Positions 41,357 to 50,870 of a stretch of 64,000 bases of DNA are shown one piece after another. The notes under the pieces are model-generated. The model had not been told where the DNA came from. It saw only the letters and a list, made by a program, of their open reading frames with translations, and did no database searches. The stretch is from an uncultured Prevotellaceae bacterium (GTDB lineage: Bacteria > Bacteroidota > Bacteroidia > Bacteroidales > Bacteroidaceae). The position numbers and the translations under genes are program-made. Every line of letters begins with the position of its first letter. Position 1 is the first letter of the stretch. Where the stretch lies: contig CADCEW010000001.1 in NCBI GenBank assembly GCA_902800585.1, forward strand, positions 1,994-65,993. Direction: 5' to 3'.

Positions 41357-41364
41357 TATCTTTG
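41357..41364 (+). promoter_or_regulatory. -7 box (TATCTTTG) for the FHA/kinase operon
   Basis: Matches TANNTTTG, 42 nt upstream of ATG 41407. Confidence 0.55.
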
Positions 41365-41406
41365 TGATTACAATATAGATTAAAGTATAACTTAAAACGG
41401 ATAAAT

Positions 41407-42108
41407 ATGAAAAAAGATGAAACATTTGTAAAAGGAGGTAACAATCCTTATGCACGTTCAAACGGAGGTCAACGTTCAGGTAATGAGACTTATATCCCTG
41501 GTATGAATGACTATACACCAGGCAGTGCTCCTGCTCCTGCAGCAGCAAATCCAAAGGCAAAGCCCAATACTCCTGTCGTAGGCTTCTTGTATTCCATCTC
41601 CCGTAAGGGCATTGGCGAGTATTGGCCTCTTCATTTGGGAACTAACACGATTGGTAGGTCAGAAGACAATGATATCTGTCTGAAGGAGATGTCTGTGTCA
41701 AGCAAGCATGCTACCTTGAGCATCAAGCAGATGAAGAGTACTCACAAACTGATTGCCAGTATCCGTGATACAGGTTCAAAGACTGGTATGTATCTGAATG
41801 ATGAAGAGTTGGACTATGAGAATCATACTTGTAAGGCCAACGACATCATCACTGTGGGTGCCAATTATAAATTACTGCTTATCTTGATTGATGCAGAAGA
41901 ATATGGACTCTCTGTATCTGAAGAATTCGTAGAGGATAAGGATGCCGCTGAGGCTCCTGCTCCTTATCAGGCACGTGGCGGTTTCGGAGACGACGCGACA
42001 CAGAATAATTTCCGTCCATATAGCTCTGATCACCGTAATGTAGATACTGGTACGGTAGATTTGAGCGGTGCAGGCTTTGATGAGCCAGGTGGAACAGAGA
42101 TGATGTAA
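41407..42108 (+). CDS. Soluble FHA-domain protein with disordered N- and C-terminal tails
   Basis: NTIGRS, SVSSKH, RDTGSKTG and DIITVG FHA motifs; no TM. Confidence 0.9.
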   Translation: MKKDETFVKGGNNPYARSNGGQRSGNETYIPGMNDYTPGSAPAPAAANPKAKPNTPVVGFLYSISRKGIGEYWPLHLGTNTIGRSEDNDICLKEMSVSSKHATLSIKQMKSTHKLIASIRDTGSKTGMYLNDEELDYENHTCKANDIITVGANYKLLLILIDAEEYGLSVSEEFVEDKDAAEAPAPYQARGGFGDDATQNNFRPYSSDHRNVDTGTVDLSGAGFDEPGGTEMM

Positions 42109-42135: not shown

Positions 42136-43764
42136 ATGTCTTTAATATATATACAAGGAGAAGAGGAGAAACAGAGACACATACACTATGAGGTGGACCC
42201 GGAATTGCCTTCATTGGGTGAGGGCGGTATGGGACAGGTTCTGAAAGGTGTACAGGTGAATGAAGTTAATGGCGTCCGGAAGGATGTCGCTATCAAGTTC
42301 CTGTTCGAGGATTTACCTGCCCATGCCATTGAACGAGCCCGGAGAGAGGCTTCTATTCAGATACATAATGAGAATCTGGTAGAGATGTTCGGCTTTATAG
42401 AGGTCGTAGAGAATCCTCAAAGTGCACATCCTGTCAAACGCTACCATGTGGTTAGTGAATTGTTACAGGGTGTGATGCTCTTTGACTTGTTGAATGGCAA
42501 GACGACGGACAAGAATGGTAACGAGGTACCTTTCGCTCAAGAATTGTATTCCAAATACCAGAATGACCGCTTCGGCTTTGCTGTCTTCATCGTGAAGAAC
42601 ATCCTGTCGGGACTGATGGCTCTGCATGACAAGGGCTATATTCATCGTGACTTGGATCCGAGCAACATCATGATTACTCCTGACCGAAAAGTTAAAATCA
42701 TCGATTTCGGTATTGCAAAGCAGATGGAGAATCTGAATACACAAGATCAACAACTGACCAGTACGGGACAGTTTGTGGGAAAGGCAGCCTATGCTGCTCC
42801 TGAGCTTGTGTTAGGTGATGTACATAGTCAGGACAAAACCACGGATATCTATGCTGTTGGTATCATGCTCTTCCAGCTCATCACGGGAAGCATGCCCTTC
42901 GAGGGAACGATGGCAGAACTGATTAAGAAACAGTTGAATGAGAAGATTCCTCTGAAACTGATTCCTTATAAGGCTGTGCGGAATATCGTTGCCAAGGCTA
43001 CTGCTAAGAAGCAGAGTGACCGCTATCAGTCTGCAGCGGAGATGCGTGTGGATCTGGAGCATTTGTCGAAGAAAGATGCTGTCCCGTCTGCTACCAGTGC
43101 AGGACAAATAGTAGCAAGCGTGGCTGATGTGAAGAGCAGTAAAGGTAAACTCATCGGTATCTTTGCTGCTGCGGTAGTGGTATTGGCAATTATTCTTGTC
43201 GTCTTACTGAGTGGTGGTTCTGATTCTCCGAAAGATGCTCCGGAAAGTACTCAAAACGTTGAGGCAACTTCTGAGGATTTTGACGTGGCGACCAGTTTCA
43301 CCAAGGCAGAGGATGCCTTGTCGAATGCAGCCACTATCCAAGAAGGAGTCAACTTATTGACAGAGATAGCCACCAAGCACGGAGATGAGAAAGATGCCGC
43401 TGACGCTATTGCCTTACTGTCTGCACTGACACAACCGGAAGATGCGGAAATCAGTGCCAATGAGGTGAAAGAGTTCAGGTCACTGACAGTGAATGCCATT
43501 AAGCGCGATGCCAAGAAGGCTCATCAGTTGGCAGAACAAGCTTATAAGGCTAATCCTGAGAGTTATAAGGCAATATTTGAACTTGCGACTGATTATGTGG
43601 CAGGAGAGAGACGGACGGGTGATGCAAAGGTACAGGATATCCAGAAGTCACTTAAACTGTTTGAGGATGGAATCAATTACGCTCGTCTAAAAGGTGATGC
43701 CGAATATGTGCAACTCTATACTACCCGTATCGAACAGGTACGTAGCCTTGTGCAGGGTGAGTAG
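42136..43764 (+). CDS. Membrane-anchored Hanks-type Ser/Thr kinase with a helical extracytoplasmic domain
   Basis: GEGGMG, VAIK, HRDLDPSN, DFG, APE, DIYAVG; TM LIGIFAAAVVVLAIILVVLL; helical TPR/Sel1-like C-terminus. Confidence 0.9.
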   Translation: MSLIYIQGEEEKQRHIHYEVDPELPSLGEGGMGQVLKGVQVNEVNGVRKDVAIKFLFEDLPAHAIERARREASIQIHNENLVEMFGFIEVVENPQSAHPVKRYHVVSELLQGVMLFDLLNGKTTDKNGNEVPFAQELYSKYQNDRFGFAVFIVKNILSGLMALHDKGYIHRDLDPSNIMITPDRKVKIIDFGIAKQMENLNTQDQQLTSTGQFVGKAAYAAPELVLGDVHSQDKTTDIYAVGIMLFQLITGSMPFEGTMAELIKKQLNEKIPLKLIPYKAVRNIVAKATAKKQSDRYQSAAEMRVDLEHLSKKDAVPSATSAGQIVASVADVKSSKGKLIGIFAAAVVVLAIILVVLLSGGSDSPKDAPESTQNVEATSEDFDVATSFTKAEDALSNAATIQEGVNLLTEIATKHGDEKDAADAIALLSALTQPEDAEISANEVKEFRSLTVNAIKRDAKKAHQLAEQAYKANPESYKAIFELATDYVAGERRTGDAKVQDIQKSLKLFEDGINYARLKGDAEYVQLYTTRIEQVRSLVQGE

Positions 43765-43779
43765 AGAAATTGATTAAAG

Positions 43780-44718
43780 ATGCCGGGGAAAGTAAAGAAG
43801 CAAGGAAACATCATCTATCTGAATGCCTACGGTCGTTGGTATCAGTATGATGAAACGCAACCACCGCTTGGCGCTGGTGCCATGGGAGTCGTGTACGTCG
43901 GAGAGGAATGCCAGACGCACGAACCAGTAGCAGTGAAACGGGTGGTTGACCACTATGCCAATAACCCGGAGATTCGCAGACGTGCCCATCAGGAGGCCGA
44001 TTTAATGTTCAGTCATCCCAATCTGGTAGAGATGCTCGGATGCTGCGAGGTACGTCCTGATACGGGTCCTATCTTTATCATCAGCCGTTTTGTCAAAGGC
44101 GAGAATATTGATAAGTTCATCAATGCTTATGTACGTGCTCTTCCCAATGCAGAGCATCGTATCTGTGAACTGTTTCTGCCAGTGTTAGACGCACTTGCGT
44201 ATATTCATACGAAAGGAATCATCCACATGGATATCAAACCGTCGAACATCATGATGGAACAGGGACGTAATGTACGACTGATGGATTTGGGTATCGCTGA
44301 TGTCACGGACACTATCAACAGTTCTACATCGGGTATGATGGGAACTCCCAAGTATGCAGCACCAGAACAGTTCTCTGATGTGGCAACCAAGCCGCAATTA
44401 ACCTCAGCGACAGATATCTATGAGGCAGGCATCACTTTGTATGAGTTGATTACCAAACAGAATCCCTTCTCGGCAACGACTGTGGCAGAGGCGAAGGAAC
44501 TGCATCACGGTATGATACTGCCAAAAGTGCCGGGAATCTCCGACTCAGTCTATGAGGTAGTACGTAAAGCAACGGCTATCAAGCCTCAGGATCGTTTCCA
44601 GACTGCATCAGCCATGAAACTCGCTTTGAAGGAGGCTCTTCCTCCGCGCAATTATACGAAATTTGACAGAATTCTAAAAGATAAATTATCGATGTTTTCG
44701 GGCATCTTTAAGAAATAA
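43780..44718 (+). CDS. Soluble Hanks-type Ser/Thr kinase (non-RD)
   Basis: GAGAMG, VAVK, HMDIKPSN, DLG, GTPKYAAPE, DIYEAG; no TM. Confidence 0.92.
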   Translation: MPGKVKKQGNIIYLNAYGRWYQYDETQPPLGAGAMGVVYVGEECQTHEPVAVKRVVDHYANNPEIRRRAHQEADLMFSHPNLVEMLGCCEVRPDTGPIFIISRFVKGENIDKFINAYVRALPNAEHRICELFLPVLDALAYIHTKGIIHMDIKPSNIMMEQGRNVRLMDLGIADVTDTINSSTSGMMGTPKYAAPEQFSDVATKPQLTSATDIYEAGITLYELITKQNPFSATTVAEAKELHHGMILPKVPGISDSVYEVVRKATAIKPQDRFQTASAMKLALKEALPPRNYTKFDRILKDKLSMFSGIFKK

Positions 44719-44724
44719 AATAGT

Positions 44725-46125
44725 ATGAATACAATCAAGACAGCAACACCTATAGCAGGCTATTGGGATACCCGGCAAGGAGGACGGGTGGAAAATCAGG
44801 ACTCTTGCGGTTTCTTGGATACGGAGAAAGGACTGATAGCCGTAGTCTGTGACGGTATGGGCGGTGGTCCCAGCGGACAACTCGCTTCTACGATAGCCGT
44901 TCAGAAAATCGTAGAGTATGTAGTTAACGCCCCTATGGATATGCCACGTACAGAGATGGTAGCCCAGGCTATAGAGTATGCGCATCAGTCTATTCTTGCC
45001 AAGACAGCAGAGAATCCTGCCTTGAGGGGTATGGGTTCGACGGCAACAGTGGTGTTGATTAGTGGACAATCTGCAATATTAGGTCATGTCGGTGATAGTC
45101 GTATCTATCAATTCCGTCGTGGCAAGAAGATCTTCCGTACTGCCGACCATTCAATGGTAGGTGAGTTGGTACGTAATGGTACATTGACGGAAGAGCAGGC
45201 TAGACTGTCATCACAGTCAAATATTATCACGAAAGCGTTAGGCAGTAAACTGACAAACCTTGCAGAGGTGACGGAACGTCCCTATGAGAAAGGCGACCGC
45301 TTTATGCTTTGTACGGATGGTATTTGGGGCGCTATGCCAGAAAGCGACTTGATTAAACGAGTGGCTAAAACTCAATCATTGTCGGGAGCTGTTGACTCTA
45401 CTGTAATAAAAGTGGACGAGATAGGGCGTGCCAATGGTAATAAGCATGACAACCTGACGATTGCATTATTAGAAACCAAACAAGATTCTATACTGAAAGA
45501 AAAAATGAGTAAGAAAACATTACGAATTTTGATAGCACTGGCAGCTGTCTGCCTGTTGAGTGTGATCCTCAACATCGTGTTGTTAACCCGGAATACCGTT
45601 AAGTCGCATGACAGTGAGAAAGAAGCGCTGATCACCCAGAATGAGGAACGGGGACAGCGTATCAGGGCATTGGAAGATAGTATCCAGTCCTTATGGGGAA
45701 CTGTTCATGACTCGAAGAACGAGGCTGCTGATGCTAATTTGAAGGCTGCCAAGGAGAAGGAGAATGCCGCGGAGAAGGCAAGGGATGATGCTGAGCAGAA
45801 GGCGAAAGAAGCGAAGGAAGCTGCCGACAAAGCCAAGGATGCTGCCGACCAGGCTAAGGCTGCTGCGGATGCCATCCAGAAGTCGCGTGGTGATGTTATT
45901 GCCCAACTCACGAAGATTAAGGATATGAAGGAGGGTGACCAACGCAAACAGATGCGTACCTCTGTTTCCAATCTGTTGAAGACGCTCTCTGCCCAAGATG
46001 CTACCCACAAGGCCATTTATGATGAGGTGCGTGAGAAACTGGGAAATAAGGTGGCCACCGAGAATTCCGACAAGGCCATTGGCCATTATAAGTTCTTGAT
46101 AGGGAAAATTCAAAACATCAAATAA
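44725..46125 (+). CDS. PP2C/PPM phosphatase with TM helix and C-terminal Ala/Lys/Glu coiled coil
   Basis: GRVENQD, VCDGMGG, HVGDSR, LCTDG and DNLT motifs; TM ILIALAAVCLLSVILNIVLL. Confidence 0.93.
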   Translation: MNTIKTATPIAGYWDTRQGGRVENQDSCGFLDTEKGLIAVVCDGMGGGPSGQLASTIAVQKIVEYVVNAPMDMPRTEMVAQAIEYAHQSILAKTAENPALRGMGSTATVVLISGQSAILGHVGDSRIYQFRRGKKIFRTADHSMVGELVRNGTLTEEQARLSSQSNIITKALGSKLTNLAEVTERPYEKGDRFMLCTDGIWGAMPESDLIKRVAKTQSLSGAVDSTVIKVDEIGRANGNKHDNLTIALLETKQDSILKEKMSKKTLRILIALAAVCLLSVILNIVLLTRNTVKSHDSEKEALITQNEERGQRIRALEDSIQSLWGTVHDSKNEAADANLKAAKEKENAAEKARDDAEQKAKEAKEAADKAKDAADQAKAAADAIQKSRGDVIAQLTKIKDMKEGDQRKQMRTSVSNLLKTLSAQDATHKAIYDEVREKLGNKVATENSDKAIGHYKFLIGKIQNIK

Positions 46126-46127
46126 TA

Positions 46128-46838
46128 TTGCCTATGAAGACCGTATCAATAGGAAGAGGAGAGGGCTGTAATATCATCGTGGATGACGAGATGATGAGTC
46201 GCAGTCATGCGATTATCAGGATTCCTACTTTCGGTAAGATGGAGGTGGTTGATATGAGTAAAAACGGAACCTATGTCAATGGAGTCCGTGTGCGTCCTAA
46301 TGTACCAGTTCCTGTAACCCGTAAGGATGTTGTCAATTTTGCGGAAGTATATCAATTAGACTGGTCGACAATACCAGACCCTCTGAAATATTATAAGATA
46401 GGTGCAATTATCGTGGGTGGACTTATCGTCCTTCTGTTGGTCATCTTACTTTTCAAGAGTTTGTCCAGCGGCACCGATACTTCTCCAGAGCAGCCTGCTG
46501 TAGAACAAGTCCAGAAACCTATACAGACAGACTACGAGCAACCGTCTCAGACCAAACAGGAAGAGGAAACTCAGCCTGAGACACCTATCGAGAGTGATGA
46601 AACTGCCACTCCTTCTAATACTCCAGAGGCTACGTCGGGTACTAGTAATGAAGTAATTGATGTCTATGGGGCTGCCCGTGCCAGTAAGAAGAAACGTGAG
46701 GCAGAGGAACGTGCTCGTCAGCAAAAGGCTAAAGCACAACAAAAAGCGAAGGAACAACAGCAATCCAAGCCTCAGGATAGTCAGCCTTCTAAAGATAAAT
46801 CATCTGATGGTAATAAGAATAAAACAGTCGTAATATAA
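46128..46838 (+). CDS. FHA domain plus TM plus low-complexity tail
   Basis: SIGRG, MSRSH and SKNGTYVNG motifs; TM IGAIIVGGLIVLLLVILLF. Confidence 0.9.
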   Translation: MPMKTVSIGRGEGCNIIVDDEMMSRSHAIIRIPTFGKMEVVDMSKNGTYVNGVRVRPNVPVPVTRKDVVNFAEVYQLDWSTIPDPLKYYKIGAIIVGGLIVLLLVILLFKSLSSGTDTSPEQPAVEQVQKPIQTDYEQPSQTKQEEETQPETPIESDETATPSNTPEATSGTSNEVIDVYGAARASKKKREAEERARQQKAKAQQKAKEQQQSKPQDSQPSKDKSSDGNKNKTVVI

Positions 46839-46855
46839 CTAAAAACATTAAGCAT

Positions 46856-48529
46856 ATGAAGATTATTAAAATTGGTAGTTCGCAATCTTGCGACATCGTA
46901 TTAGACAGTAACTTTGTCAGCAGCCTGCATGCTGAAATGACCATTCTTGACGACGGACAGATAATCCTGGAAGACAAGAACAGTAAGAACGGAACACAAG
47001 TCGGTAATAAGAGAATAGAGCCGGGTAAGGAGGTTTCAATACAACGTGGTGACCGTATTACCTTTGCTGATACTCCTCTGGTATGGGCGAAAGTTCCTGC
47101 TCCAGAGAAATTGGCAGCCTATAAGTCTGTGTATAATATCGGTTCTAATTTCCGTAATGATATTATTTTGAACAGTCAGACAGTTAGCCGTTATCATGCT
47201 TCCCTCAGAGTCGGTAAGGATGGTAAGATGTATATCCATGACAACGGCAGTCGTAATGGCACGATGGTGAATGGTGTAAAGATTGCTGCCAACAAGGATG
47301 TCCGTATCAAGAAGGGTGATAATATTGTCTGTGGTACAGAGGATGTAACGGATCAGGTGACTGCTTTGTTACCCAAGAGCAATACAGGCATGATTGCTGC
47401 TATTGTCGGTGGTGTAGTAGGTCTTCTCGTATTAGCTGGTATCATTTTCGCTCTTTGGCCGAAGTCAGAACCAGAGCCTGTGATTGCTTCTACAAATGAC
47501 TCAACCTATGTAGCTCCATCTACTCCAACAAATGTTTCTCCTGAGAAGTACCGCAACACGGTAGTATATGTGGATGCAATGTATCATTATATTGCTGAGT
47601 TTGAGGATAACCCCATGCCGGATACATGGAACGGAAAGATTGAGGATATCGGTAGAATAGAGGGTGATAATGCAATTAGACCTTATAGTGCAACAGCCTT
47701 CTTCCTCGATAAGAACGGTTATATGGGTACTAACCGTCATGTGGCAGTACCATGGGATTACAGAACTAAGGATGAAGACAACAGAATCCGTGAGTTAATA
47801 GAATATCGCATAGAGTTGATGCGTCGTACCTGTAGGTTTATGAAGACTGGTGATGAGCGCTGGACAGTGAGCGAAAAGAATAGGGATTTCTCTCAACTTA
47901 CTATGCAGAAATTTGCTGAGACAGATTTCTTTAAGGCAATATACAACCACATCCGTAAATCTGCTAATTGGCAGGGTGAGCTGGATAAGATTGTTGATCG
48001 TCTAAATCGTTCCCGTTACACCATCACAGGTGCTATCGATTATATTACGGTAGGTTATGCCGGCAGGAACTATACCCATCGTGATGAGTTCCAGCGTTGC
48101 GATGTTGTAGCAGATTCTAAGGATAAGGAGATTGATGTAGCTTTGTTACAATTGAACGACAAGAAGACTCCCGCAGATGTGGAACTTCTCTTCAGCCCCA
48201 GCAACTTCTATACAGAAAAGTTGGTTCCTTTGAAGGACAAATTGTTTACTATTGGCTATCCAGCAGGTTTGACATGGGGACTTGATACGAAAATCAAGTC
48301 TTTGGAACCCAATATCAAGGAGACCAAGTGTAGTAAGGAGCCAAGCAAGTATGTCTTTGAGTTCCAGGATCAGTCAATAGGCGGTAGCAGTGGCTCGCCA
48401 GTCTTTAACGAGGCAGGTCAGTTGGTTGGTATCCTCAGTTCCGGTACCTCTAATGTGGCAGGTGGCTTCACGATGGCTGTACAGTCTAAGTATCTGAAGA
48501 AAATCTATGATGAAGAAGCAGGACAGTAA
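46856..48529 (+). CDS. Tandem FHA domains, TM, then trypsin-like (S1) serine protease
   Basis: Two FHA repeats (VSSLH/SKNGT; VSRYH/SRNGT); TM; triad TNRH (H295), IDVALL (D427), GSSGSP (S512). Confidence 0.88.
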   Translation: MKIIKIGSSQSCDIVLDSNFVSSLHAEMTILDDGQIILEDKNSKNGTQVGNKRIEPGKEVSIQRGDRITFADTPLVWAKVPAPEKLAAYKSVYNIGSNFRNDIILNSQTVSRYHASLRVGKDGKMYIHDNGSRNGTMVNGVKIAANKDVRIKKGDNIVCGTEDVTDQVTALLPKSNTGMIAAIVGGVVGLLVLAGIIFALWPKSEPEPVIASTNDSTYVAPSTPTNVSPEKYRNTVVYVDAMYHYIAEFEDNPMPDTWNGKIEDIGRIEGDNAIRPYSATAFFLDKNGYMGTNRHVAVPWDYRTKDEDNRIRELIEYRIELMRRTCRFMKTGDERWTVSEKNRDFSQLTMQKFAETDFFKAIYNHIRKSANWQGELDKIVDRLNRSRYTITGAIDYITVGYAGRNYTHRDEFQRCDVVADSKDKEIDVALLQLNDKKTPADVELLFSPSNFYTEKLVPLKDKLFTIGYPAGLTWGLDTKIKSLEPNIKETKCSKEPSKYVFEFQDQSIGGSSGSPVFNEAGQLVGILSSGTSNVAGGFTMAVQSKYLKKIYDEEAGQ

Positions 48530-49866
48530 TGAGGATTAAGAAAAGTCTTATAGTAATACTGATGTGCCTTGCCCTACCTTTAGTGGGGCAGGCACAATCT
48601 GCCCATTGGGCTATTCAGCCCACCTATCAGTCAATGACCCGTTTTGCCCCTCGTCTTTTTAAGGTGAAGACCTATGTCAGTACGGGAATCCTTGACGTGG
48701 ATGATAAATGGGTGGTATCCCCTTCACTGGACTCTATTACTTATGTAACTAATGGCTATGCTCTTGGTTTATTGAGGAGCAAGGATAAATACCGTATTAT
48801 CCATGTCATTAGACAGAACGGTACCCATGAGCCGGTTAAGGAAGAATTGTATGCCGGTGATTTTGCCTATTTCTCAGATGACAGATGCCCTGTTATGAAC
48901 AAGAAAGGCAAGTATGGTTTTATGGATCCTGCAGGAAAATTAGTCGTTTCTTGTTCTTATACAGCAGTTACTCCTTTCCGAAATGGGAGTGCTTTCGTTA
49001 CAAAAGGAAAAGGAGGGTTTTCTGGAAAAAATGCCATTTCCGAGATAGATAATAACGGTAAAGTGATTAAGACTGTTGGCAATAATGACTTCAGGATTCC
49101 CGCGCAGGAGATTGCTATTCCATACAAACCAACTCCAGATCCATCTTATCAGCGGTATGATGAGAATAAATTATATGGATATAAGATAGGAAGTGAAGTG
49201 CTCTTGCCTGCTCAGTTTGAGGAAGCAGAGAATATCTCTGATGATTGCGCTATTGTGATGGTTGATCATTTATATGGAGTGATTAAGGTTAATAGTGCAA
49301 CCATAGACTGTAACGTCAGTGAGTCTGGTGGAAAATTGAAGGCAGATGCCGAAATCCCTTCTGTCTGGGATAATAAGGTGGCAATGATTGTCCGTACGGT
49401 TAATGGTGCATCCCGTAAAGAATTTGAAATGCAAGGAACAGAAACACAACGCACGCTTAACACAAGTGTTTCTAATGAAAGTGGCAAAAAGGTCTATGAC
49501 CTTGCTTGTGACAAACTGATTCTTTGGCGTAGTTCCATAAAAACAGATTCTCCTTCAAAAGGTGGTGGCGGGAAAGCATCATCTAAAGGAGGTGTCTCTG
49601 TCAGTACATCTCCTTCTGTAAAAGCAAATGCGAAAGGTGTATGTTCCGTTTCTATACGTGTTGTCAATAATACAGGTTCTTCGAATACATTTAACATCTC
49701 TCTTAGTACAGGACAGAAGAGTTCTATAAAACTTGCGGCAGGAAAGTCGGGATCCGTCACAGTAAATGTTCCTGTGAAGAAGGATACAAAATGTACGATT
49801 ACCGCCCGCGGAGGTGGCTTCTCGAGTTCTTGTACAACGACATTGAAGCCGTCTTTTGTATTATAA
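48529..49866 (+). CDS. Exported WG-repeat protein with a C-terminal Ig-like beta domain
   Basis: Signal peptide; KYGFMDPAGKLVV, LYGYK...LLPAQFE and LYGVIK repeats. Confidence 0.75.
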   Translation: MRIKKSLIVILMCLALPLVGQAQSAHWAIQPTYQSMTRFAPRLFKVKTYVSTGILDVDDKWVVSPSLDSITYVTNGYALGLLRSKDKYRIIHVIRQNGTHEPVKEELYAGDFAYFSDDRCPVMNKKGKYGFMDPAGKLVVSCSYTAVTPFRNGSAFVTKGKGGFSGKNAISEIDNNGKVIKTVGNNDFRIPAQEIAIPYKPTPDPSYQRYDENKLYGYKIGSEVLLPAQFEEAENISDDCAIVMVDHLYGVIKVNSATIDCNVSESGGKLKADAEIPSVWDNKVAMIVRTVNGASRKEFEMQGTETQRTLNTSVSNESGKKVYDLACDKLILWRSSIKTDSPSKGGGGKASSKGGVSVSTSPSVKANAKGVCSVSIRVVNNTGSSNTFNISLSTGQKSSIKLAAGKSGSVTVNVPVKKDTKCTITARGGGFSSSCTTTLKPSFVL

Positions 49867-49880
49867 TAAAGTATATACTG

Positions 49881-50870
49881 ATGAAAAAGAAAAAGTATCT
49901 CTTCTTGTTATCATTGATGACTGTTGTCATGGGACATGCTCAGGTCTATGACAAACTGATTCTGACGGATGGTAGCATGGTGGAAGGACGCATTGCCGTT
50001 CAGCATCCAGGCAAGGATATTGTTTTCCAGAGTGTTGATCAGGAAATCAGTTATCCCATGGAGGATATACTGGCGATAGAGCGTGTCAAGCGACAGGCTG
50101 ATGACCTTTCCGGTATTGATGACATAATAGAGACAAGGAATGGAAAAGTATTTAAAGGACAGATTGTCAAGCAACTTCTTGGCAAGTCTGTCTATCTGTT
50201 CCAGGACAATGGTGTTACCCAGATAATCAATAATGCTGAAATTGCCTGTCATAGGAAAGAGAAGTTTAATCAGGAACAAAATATCTTTGAACAGGCCCCT
50301 TTCTTGGATGTAGTGGTAACTGATGATAATACTTATCAAGGTATCATAGTCTTACAGAACTATGGTTCAGAAGATGAGGCGAGTTACCTGTGTATTCAGG
50401 ATGAGCAAGGACAACAGCATAAGGTTGACATAGCAGACATCACAGCATTGCGTCGGGAATCGAATAGTCAATATGCTCCTGTTACGGTATTCCGTGCTGG
50501 AGAGGGTGAGGTTTATTTCAACAGGAATCTTACGGCATATACTATATATACAACAGGTAAGGACGGCTCTCTGAGAATCAAGCGTGACATTCTGTTGCAG
50601 TGTCCTGCCATTACGGATACTCGTTTGATTGTTGAGGCTCAGGATAATGAGTCAAATCGTCATGGAATCCTTGTTCGCAGTTCCGTTCAAGGTGAAGGGA
50701 AGAAAGAAGCATTGGTCTTTAGTTATCAAGATATGCTGACCGCACCTGTTTCTCCTGTGCAGACAAAAGTCATTAGTGGTACACTACGTAGGGAGTATGT
50801 AACAGAACCAGGCTTCTATATATATTATGTTCCTCAGACTCAGAGAGCTTATGTCTGTGAAGTAAAATGA
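49881..50870 (+). CDS. Exported hypothetical protein with three short beta-barrel (Sm-like) repeats
   Basis: Signal peptide from ATG 49881; repeats DKLILTDGSMVEGRI, DIIETRNGKVFKGQI and DVVVTDDNTYQGII. Confidence 0.65.
   Translation: MKKKKYLFLLSLMTVVMGHAQVYDKLILTDGSMVEGRIAVQHPGKDIVFQSVDQEISYPMEDILAIERVKRQADDLSGIDDIIETRNGKVFKGQIVKQLLGKSVYLFQDNGVTQIINNAEIACHRKEKFNQEQNIFEQAPFLDVVVTDDNTYQGIIVLQNYGSEDEASYLCIQDEQGQQHKVDIADITALRRESNSQYAPVTVFRAGEGEVYFNRNLTAYTIYTTGKDGSLRIKRDILLQCPAITDTRLIVEAQDNESNRHGILVRSSVQGEGKKEALVFSYQDMLTAPVSPVQTKVISGTLRREYVTEPGFYIYYVPQTQRAYVCEVK

Follow-up and report, generated by a model that had tools for sequence, protein, structure and literature searches.

Why would a serine protease be joined, through a membrane-spanning helix, to two domains of a type that reads protein phosphorylation? 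This question is raised by a gene, here called g6, in a stretch of 64,000 nucleotides from an uncultured Prevotellaceae bacterium (contig CADCEW010000001.1); the whole stretch is referred to below as the window, and all positions are counted from its first letter. The open reading frame (ORF) of g6 covers positions 46856-48529 on the + strand, starts with ATG and encodes 557 residues. The ORF list, Pfam searches and homologous sequences identify the product as a single-pass (bitopic) membrane protein, consisting of two N-terminal FHA domains, one transmembrane (TM) helix and a protease domain of the S1 type. The gene is the sixth of a cassette of eight tightly packed genes on the + strand, g1-g8, with intergenic gaps of -1 to 27 nt, in which it is accompanied by two Ser/Thr kinases (g2 and g3), a PP2C phosphatase (g4), two further FHA proteins (g1 and g5) and two secreted proteins (g7 and g8). 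The reading favoured here, which we hold tentatively as a little short of an even bet, is that a Ser/Thr phosphorylation module acting across the membrane exists throughout the Bacteroidales and has g6 as its proteolytic arm in the periplasm; phospho-dependent assembly of FHA domains would control what the protease encounters there.

Conservation of g6 and its gene neighbourhood

The architecture of g6 is shared by 652 proteins at E≤1e-5, and a pattern scan of one genome per species detects a relative of g6 in at least 315 species. Among the 80 species listed, all are Bacteroidales except two metagenome-assembled genomes labelled Staphylococcus, which are probably mis-binned. The carriers among those listed include rumen Prevotella, which holds the closest relative (82% identity), Phocaeicola massiliensis, P. 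faecalis, Bacteroides rodentium, Parabacteroides, Alloprevotella and Muribaculaceae. Cultured carriers are represented by P. massiliensis DSM 17679, B. rodentium JCM 16496 and Prevotella sp. tf2-5, and bovine, sheep and goat gut metagenomes hold an identical sequence. In the databases, members of the family are named either 'FHA domain-containing protein' or by FHA in combination with 'V8-like endopeptidase'.

The gene order g1-g8 recurs, within unrelated flanks, in Phocaeicola barnesiae and in another Bacteroidales lineage, and most of the 84 loci, drawn from many genera, that were compared with phmmer have it too. Downstream of g6, either g7 or g8 starts within -19 to +25 nt at all but one of the loci having such a neighbour, and where g7 is missing, g8 stands directly after the protease gene. 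Distant relatives of g6 that have Gly-Arg in both FHA domains are found in a different arrangement, i.e., protease, FHA, PP2C, kinase-FHA, FHA and giant kinase, and one distant relative keeps the cassette order with extra genes. The linkage with FHA, PP2C and kinase genes thus survives rearrangement, which is the strongest evidence that the protease works with phospho-signalling proteins. The link to phosphorylation had been put forward in an earlier note on this DNA, made from the letters alone, and both the conserved cassette and its persistence through shuffling of the gene order uphold it.

Several variations of the cassette were observed. In the distant cassettes L086 and L087, which begin with the protease gene, the giant Ser/Thr kinase has 1228-1291 residues and another kinase is fused to an FHA domain. 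About ten genomes carry a second PP2C-like gene and a kinase gene after g8, for example in the order 'g1 g3 g4 g5 g6 g8 g4 g2', and a second gene resembling g5 or g6 occurs at a few loci. In view of these additional genes, the cassette is modular and sometimes partly duplicated.

Topology and the protease domain

The AlphaFold2 (AF2) model of g6, computed with 81 homologous sequences, has a mean predicted local distance difference test (pLDDT) score of 89.8 and comprises two β-sandwich FHA domains, a TM helix at residues 177-199 and a two-barrel protease. FHA1 (residues 1-80) is encoded at 46856-47095 and FHA2 (residues 88-170) at 47117-47365, on the evidence of Pfam and the family alignment and, for FHA1, also of alignment with Dun1 and Rad53; these and all further features of g6 lie on the + strand. 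The single TM helix (residues 177-201 approximately; 47384-47458) was placed by AF2 and by hydropathy, which reveals one strongly hydrophobic segment at about 179-201, with a Kyte-Doolittle peak of 2.78 at 180-198. It is followed by a periplasmic linker of variable length (residues 202-228; 47459-47539), with 56% gaps in the family alignment, of which residues 202-223 are predicted to be disordered, with pLDDT values below 50. The remainder of the protein (residues 229-557; 47540-48526) is formed by the periplasmic chymotrypsin-fold serine protease domain, assigned by Foldseek and a PDB sequence profile.

The kinase, PP2C and FHA domains of g2, g4, g5 and g6 all precede single TM helices. Kinases require ATP, which is cytoplasmic, and a kinase located N-terminally of its TM helix therefore places the N-termini inside and the C-terminal domains outside. 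In addition, when the protease domain by itself was used as the query of an exhaustive HMMER search, 634 representatives were obtained, which comprise FHA-fused forms as well as proteins with a lipoprotein signal peptide, such as WP_051931185, named Gillisia (Flavobacteriia). These lipoprotein relatives align over the whole protease domain of g6, including the helical insertion described below, and therefore suggest that the domain works outside the cytoplasm. From this topology logic and these relatives we infer that the FHA domains of g6 share the cytoplasmic side of the membrane with the kinase and PP2C domains. That the protease is periplasmic, as proposed in the earlier note, is well supported, albeit indirectly, by the N-terminal placement of the kinase, PP2C and FHA domains and by the lipoprotein relatives. 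A disulfide between C415 and C492 was considered as a marker of the periplasm and rejected, C492 being conserved in the close clade only.

The protease domain contains the residues of a catalytic triad, identified by motif inspection and family alignment, in the order His295 (TNRHV; codon at 47738-47740), Asp427 (DVALLQL; 48134-48136) and Ser512 (GGSSGSP; 48389-48391), within the TNxH, DxA and GxSGxP motifs of the family. This triad is kept in 221 of the 224 full-length family members. Together with the Pfam and hydropathy results it substantiates the layout that had been read from the letters, with two N-terminal FHA domains, one TM helix and an intact triad. The AF2 model displays the double β-barrel of the chymotrypsin fold (Foldseek probability 1.00), and its structural neighbours are DegS, DegP, HtrA1 and plant Deg proteases, with E-values of about 1e-8 and target TM-scores of about 0.68. 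The Pfam profile Trypsin_2 matches residues 406-526 (E=3.2e-12, 47.8 bits against a cutoff of 27.6) with its positions 34-144 only, i.e., its C-terminal three quarters, the His region falling outside this match because the insertion splits it off. By sequence profile, the closest PDB entries are S1B proteases (V8, Spl and exfoliative toxin; E about 3e-8), aligned at profile positions 386-502 only, so that the sequence similarity to this group is confined to the part downstream of the insertion. The Peptidase S46 profile scores 20.5 bits, against a cutoff of 22, and only at residues 505-531 around the Ser motif. Judged from its sequence, g6 thus appears to carry an active S1 protease with a near-invariant triad.

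The best structural matches belong to the DegS/HtrA proteases (MEROPS S1C), which, like g6, are periplasmic serine proteases of the chymotrypsin fold, membrane-anchored in the case of DegS, and of which the activity is regulated via loops around the active site. Unlike these proteins, g6 has no PDZ domain (no Pfam match at E≤0.1, with the protein ending 45 residues past S512) and no sigma/anti-sigma partner, appears nearer in sequence, downstream of the insertion, to the V8, Spl and exfoliative-toxin proteases, and possesses two cytoplasmic FHA domains and an insertion of about 90 residues in addition. HtrA proteases assemble into trimers via the N-terminal segment of the protease domain; the model of g6 is that of a monomer.

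The catalytic His and Asp of g6 are 132 residues apart. From this spacing the earlier note had deduced a mostly helical insertion of about 90 residues in the first barrel, and such an insertion is evident at residues 298-387 (47747-48016) from the AF2 model, the Foldseek alignments and the His-Asp spacing. The structure prediction that had been proposed as a check gives five helices (305-331, 334-337, 347-354, 357-366 and 372-385) with pLDDT values above 90, located directly after the catalytic His, between the His turn (294-297) and the next strand of the first barrel (388-401). With targets of about 200 residues, the Foldseek alignments extend to 330-350 columns, which indicates that the insertion has no counterpart in the DegS, DegP, HtrA1 and Deg structures. 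The His-Asp spacing ranges from 64 to 141 residues among the 224 full-length members (median 116) and from 113 to 130 in the FHA-less lipoprotein relatives, with one at 58. The insertion characterises a wider S1 subfamily of the Bacteroidota, to which these lipoproteins belong. Since the relatives without FHA domains have it, the insertion either arose before the fusion to FHA domains or has no connection with it, and neither is a phospho-switch nor evolved together with one. Among the folded regions of the protein it has the lowest conservation (28% identity, versus 73% for the FHA domains), is about 40% charged and contains no invariant residue between W300 and G392. A relation between its length and the presence of g7 was considered and not found, the median His-Asp spacing being 117 with g7 and 115 without.

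The position right after the catalytic His is that of loop B (the 60-loop in chymotrypsin numbering), as in thrombin. The 60-loop of thrombin and the helical domain of the S46 peptidases (DPP7/DPP11) are likewise inserts in a chymotrypsin fold, and they cap the cleft and restrict the substrates; the thrombin insertion comprises only 9 residues, and the S46 helical domain is far larger and inserted elsewhere. By analogy with these inserts and from its position in the model, the insertion of g6 probably caps the S2/S1′ side of the cleft, restricting or selecting substrates, and our best guess is that it may form either a substrate-restricting cap or a fast-evolving recognition surface.

The tandem FHA domains

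Pfam FHA (PF00498) matches g6 in two stretches, at residues 4-70 and about 93-161 (E=1.3e-35; 122 bits against a cutoff of 20.7), and the β-strand pattern of the fold is modelled with pLDDT values above 90. Conservation within the protein is highest in the FHA domains, with 73% mean identity versus 58-65% for the protease core. In the phosphothreonine (pThr) contact set of FHA domains, i.e., Gly-Arg, Ser-x-x-His and Asn-Gly, the Arg is replaced in both domains and the rest is kept: FHA1 contains the motif IGSSQSCD and FHA2 the motif IGSNFRND, with Ser (S8 and S97) where the canonical Gly-Arg is expected. In the alignment S8 coincides with the canonical Arg of Dun1 (IGRSRSCD) and of FHA1 of Rad53 (FGRNPACD). 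The other FHA proteins of the operon retain Gly-Arg, in TIGRSEDND of g1 (41407-42108) and IGRGEGCN of g5 (46128-46838), and another FHA domain with Gly-Ser is present in Chlamydia CT664 (PDB entry 3gqs). The remaining pThr-contact positions, S22, H25 and N45-G46-T47 in FHA1 and S111, H114 and N134-G135 in FHA2, are kept in 94-100% of the 224 members.

The residue at the canonical Arg position varies by clade. At position 8 of FHA1, the close clade has Ser (86), Asn (21) or Arg (4), and 70 of 99 distant members have Arg or Lys. At position 97 of FHA2, Ser or Thr is found in 117 of 119 close members, and Arg or Lys in 45 of 100 distant ones. As Arg/Lys is commoner in distant members, loss of the Arg is a derived state within a Prevotella/Bacteroidaceae clade. 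The observation in the earlier note that both FHA domains of g6 have Gly-Ser, and the stand-alone FHA proteins Gly-Arg, therefore stands, but Gly-Ser represents a derived state in domains that otherwise preserve the pThr site.

FHA2 of g6 retains S111, H114 and N134 as well as R100, R112 and R133, the latter three in loops close to the phosphate. Throughout the family, FHA2 domains that lack the canonical Arg nearly always have R100 (in the same loop), R112 (Ser-Arg-x-His) and R133 (beside the Asn), and FHA1 domains without it correspondingly have K41 and often K44. These basic residues are compatible with relocated phosphate ligands. A compensatory relocation was tried as an explanation: R100/R112/R133 and K41/K44 do anti-correlate strongly with the Arg, but so do the unrelated residues K121, K124 and R118. 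Clade structure thus confounds the signal, and compensation is not claimed. The suggestion in the earlier note that the FHA domains need not bind pThr directly seems fair for FHA1, and is weaker for FHA2 in view of R100, R112 and R133; a loss of pThr binding does not follow from the replacement of the Arg, and is more plausible for FHA1 than for FHA2.

A further observation concerns the segment that precedes the TM helix, where g6 carries the motif E-D-[IV]-T165-[DE]-Q-[ILV] (residues 162-168; 47339-47359). Position 165 is Thr or Ser in all 119 members of the clade without the Arg, and often Asp in distant members. The motif fits the pT-x-x-[ILV] preference of many FHA domains and could, speculatively, be a phospho-acceptor for g1 or g5.

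The replacement of the Arg raises the possibility that g6 is a constitutive protease for quality control or processing in the envelope, with FHA domains that have lost pThr binding and serve in structure or dimerisation only, and with kinase genes placed nearby merely for co-regulated expression. The missing Arg in both domains would fit this explanation, as would the FHA-less lipoprotein paralogues and the precedent of FHA-TM-periplasmic proteins with FHA folds that do not bind phosphate, to which g6 itself is connected by a match to Pfam Yop-YscD_cpl (71 bits, above the cutoff of 33.2 bits). However, a constitutive role is difficult to reconcile with the near-invariance (94-100%) of the pThr-site residues Ser, His and Asn-Gly-Thr, with the retention of the Arg in distant members, with the strong conservation of the FHA domains relative to the rest of the protein, and with a kinase/PP2C gene linkage that outlasts rearrangement, and we regard it as unlikely.

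The YscD/PrgH- and EssC-type proteins resemble g6 in having a cytoplasmic FHA domain, one TM helix and an extracytoplasmic domain, and their FHA domains also deviate from the pThr consensus. They are non-enzymatic ring or ATPase parts of secretion systems, whereas the protease of g6 looks active and its FHA domains have the Ser, His and Asn that contact pThr.

The eight-gene cassette and a proposed mechanism

The cassette starts with g1 (41407-42108), encoding a soluble FHA protein of 233 residues with the canonical Gly-Arg and disordered, Thr-containing tails. The two kinases differ in type: g2 (42136-43764) is a Hanks Ser/Thr kinase with HRD and DFG motifs, a TM helix at residues 339-357 and a helical periplasmic domain, and g3 (43780-44718) is a soluble, non-RD Ser/Thr kinase with HMD for HRD and DLG for DFG. 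The PP2C phosphatase g4 (44725-46125) has a TM helix at residues 268-286 and a charged periplasmic tail that is probably helical (coiled-coil-like), and g5 (46128-46838) consists of an FHA domain with the canonical Gly-Arg, a TM helix at residues 91-109 and a low-complexity, charged periplasmic tail. The start codon of g7 (48529-49866), a secreted WG_beta_rep protein with a signal peptide, overlaps the stop codon of g6. The last gene, g8 (49881-50870), encodes a secreted all-β protein, of which the true start is likely that of the signal peptide MKKKKYLF. All these genes are on the + strand. No match of g8 was found in Pfam, NCBIfam or the PDB sequence profiles, and no family-level NCBIfam model matches g6, g7 or g8. 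The AF2 model of g8 (pLDDT 86) displays three tandem small SH3/Tudor-like β-barrels and a C-terminal β domain; a Foldseek search with this model gave no significant match, only a weak resemblance to the tandem Tudor domains of 53BP1 (E about 1e-2). For the WG repeat of g7, the literature search returned only an unrelated structure-prediction paper.

Upstream, the sequence TATCTTTG at 41358-41365, about 45 nt before the start of g1, matches TAnnTTTG, which we take to be the Bacteroidetes -7 promoter consensus. It lies within a gap of 250 nt between a divergent beta-lactamase-fold gene and g1. The operon is covered by a sheep-rumen metatranscriptome assembly, in which one contig of 3472 nt (window 46281-49752) spans the 3′ part of g5, the whole of g6 and the greater part of g7, which would agree with their co-transcription in vivo.

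In a second explanation, signals run from the outside in or in a feedback loop, with the protease acting on the kinases or upstream of them: its substrates would be g7, g8 or the domains that g2, g4 or g5 expose in the periplasm, cleavage would start or end a signal, and the FHA domains would only tether it to the phosphorylated kinase complex. The conserved cassette and its shuffled linkage fit this explanation equally. It is consistent, moreover, with the translational coupling of g7 or g8 to g6 and with the periplasmic tails exposed by g2, g4 and g5, two of which are low-complexity or coiled. In addition, DegS-like relatives by fold serve as site-1 proteases, site-1 proteolysis being established for DegS and RseA. 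On the other hand, g6 has no PDZ or other known periplasmic sensor domain, domain scans of the cassette proteins reveal neither an anti-sigma/sigma pair nor another transcriptional output, and FHA domains that are conserved so strongly would seem to do more than tether the protein passively. We consider this explanation possible but doubtful.

The cassette is reminiscent of two known systems, of one in its logic and of the other in its gene content. In the threonine phosphorylation pathway of type VI secretion systems (T6SS), a kinase/PP2C/FHA module controls an envelope machine post-translationally (PMC13584744). Like the cassette, this pathway (PpkA/TagE, PppA/TagG, Fha1/TagH) comprises a PP2C phosphatase, an FHA protein and a Hanks kinase that sits in the membrane and has a periplasmic domain. 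In the cassette, by contrast, a TM helix connects FHA domains with a protease, the kinases number two and the FHA proteins three, and T6SS core genes are lacking, none having been found among the ORFs scanned at 37.7-53.8 kb or in related cassettes.

A further explanation would make g6 part of a machine that spans the envelope and serves secretion, gliding or adhesion, in which its FHA domains would form an inner-membrane scaffold, like YscD, TagH or GltG, and its protease would mature machine parts. The Yop-YscD_cpl match and sub-threshold NCBIfam matches to GltG and TagH via the FHA domains would agree with this, the NCBIfam scores being far below the cutoffs. The distant relative P0252 (L085:9001-10653), with Gly-Arg in both FHA domains, points in the same direction: it follows genes for TssR(+VWA), ABC_tran, FtsX-like and outer-membrane barrel proteins, with no kinase within 9 kb, and its locus may point to a Bacteroidota envelope or T6SS-related module. 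Nevertheless, no secretion ATPase, sheath/tube, secretin or Glt/Gld gene was found among the ORFs scanned at 37.7-53.8 kb or in related cassettes, and a role of g6 as a machine part seems improbable.

The second system is the actinobacterial fhaA-fhaB-pstP-rodA-pbpA-pknA-pknB cluster, which contains two FHA proteins (one membrane-anchored), a PP2C phosphatase with a TM helix and two Hanks kinases. The same gene logic is combined within one operon in g1-g8, and FhaB/FipA and the Stp1 PP2C are the top sub-threshold NCBIfam matches in the cassette. In the Gram-negative cassette, however, there are no PASTA domains, and the SEDS/PBP pair is replaced by a protease and two secreted β-rich proteins; no SEDS (RodA) or class B penicillin-binding protein (PBP) domain was detected in g1-g8. 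Each of these comparisons thus fails at a defining feature, i.e., the PDZ domain of DegS/HtrA, the T6SS core, the SEDS/PBP pair of the actinobacterial cluster, and the non-enzymatic ring role of the YscD-type proteins.

An anti-phage or conflict system, with the protease as effector switched on by kinase signalling, was considered on the basis of a PADLOC scan of the eight cassette proteins. The kinases match PD-T4-6 and MAD6, the C-terminal half of the g6 protease matches RT-Protease and LmuA, and the PP2C domain of g4 matches the candidate-defence model PDC-M21C (E=3.4e-17), of which no other component was found. No full system was detected, and the matches correspond to generic kinase, PP2C and protease domains only. 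The flanks of the cassette consist of housekeeping genes, the cassette occurs with conserved order in at least 315 species-representative genomes, and a periplasmic effector is atypical for abortive infection, all of which makes a role in defence very improbable.

The favoured reading, in which phospho-dependent FHA assembly governs the periplasmic encounters of g6, starts from the presumed division of roles within the cassette: a sensor (the periplasmic domain of g2), writers (g2 and g3), an eraser (g4) and readers (g1, g5 and g6). Apart from the kinases and the phosphatase, the only catalytic activity is the protease, and the genes closest to it encode two secreted proteins. It is because such a set of writers, eraser and readers comes without a DNA-binding output protein, none of which was found among the cassette proteins by domain scans, and because its sole other enzyme is a periplasmic protease beside secreted proteins, that this reading is preferred. 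In the proposed mechanism, the membrane kinase g2 would sense a signal via its periplasmic helical domain, and g2 and g3 would write phosphothreonine marks on cytoplasmic tails, to be erased by g4. The FHA domains of g1, g5 and g6 would read these marks or bind each other, and their contacts would set which membrane partners cluster with g6. Such clustering could control which periplasmic substrates reach the active site, the candidates being g7 and g8, which are coupled to g6 in translation, or the tails that g2, g4 and g5 expose in the periplasm; feedback cleavage of these tails would be a sub-variant of the same mechanism. The helical insertion would restrict substrates as a general property of the protease subfamily, not as a phospho-specific switch.

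A stronger form of this proposal, that cytoplasmic Ser/Thr phosphorylation, read by tandem FHA domains with a relocated or replaced Arg, switches the protease on or off across the inner membrane and so remodels secreted or envelope proteins (g7, g8) in Bacteroidales of gut and rumen, appears to us rather doubtful. The suggestions in the earlier note that FHA interactions could oligomerise the protease and activate it from the inside, and that the insertion may be a lid, are likewise conjectural. Similarly speculative is the corollary that such an inside-out device would provide bacterial Hanks kinases with a previously unrecognised, transcription-independent and post-translational route of output.

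Several points weigh against the favoured reading. Both FHA domains of g6 lack the canonical phosphate-binding Arg, and FHA1 has no obvious substitute Arg in the same loop. The insertion, being present in FHA-less relatives, cannot be the phospho-responsive element. The positive-inside rule, applied to 224 TM flanks, leaves the orientation undecided (K+R 2.1 vs 1.95). The surroundings of P0252, with envelope genes and without a nearby kinase, do not suit a phosphorylation module. The metatranscriptome contigs are assembled and may contain DNA. Finally, no published study of g6 or the cassette was found in the full-text literature; Kaur et al. 2020 (PMC7159879) mention FHA, PP2C and trypsin in other systems only.

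Little study appears to have been made of Ser/Thr phospho-signalling in the Bacteroidales, which dominate among the Gram-negative bacteria of gut and rumen. The cassette described here is common to hundreds of species and includes no transcription factor, and its only non-signalling enzyme is a protease across the membrane. The g6 family is widespread, uncharacterised and experimentally tractable, since cultured carriers exist, and it offers a natural series of proteins having FHA domains with and without the canonical Arg and insertions of different sizes. If phosphorylation does control the protease, bacterial Hanks kinases would thereby have a new means of acting on the envelope, and the outside-in proteolytic signalling of the DegS type would have a reverse counterpart.

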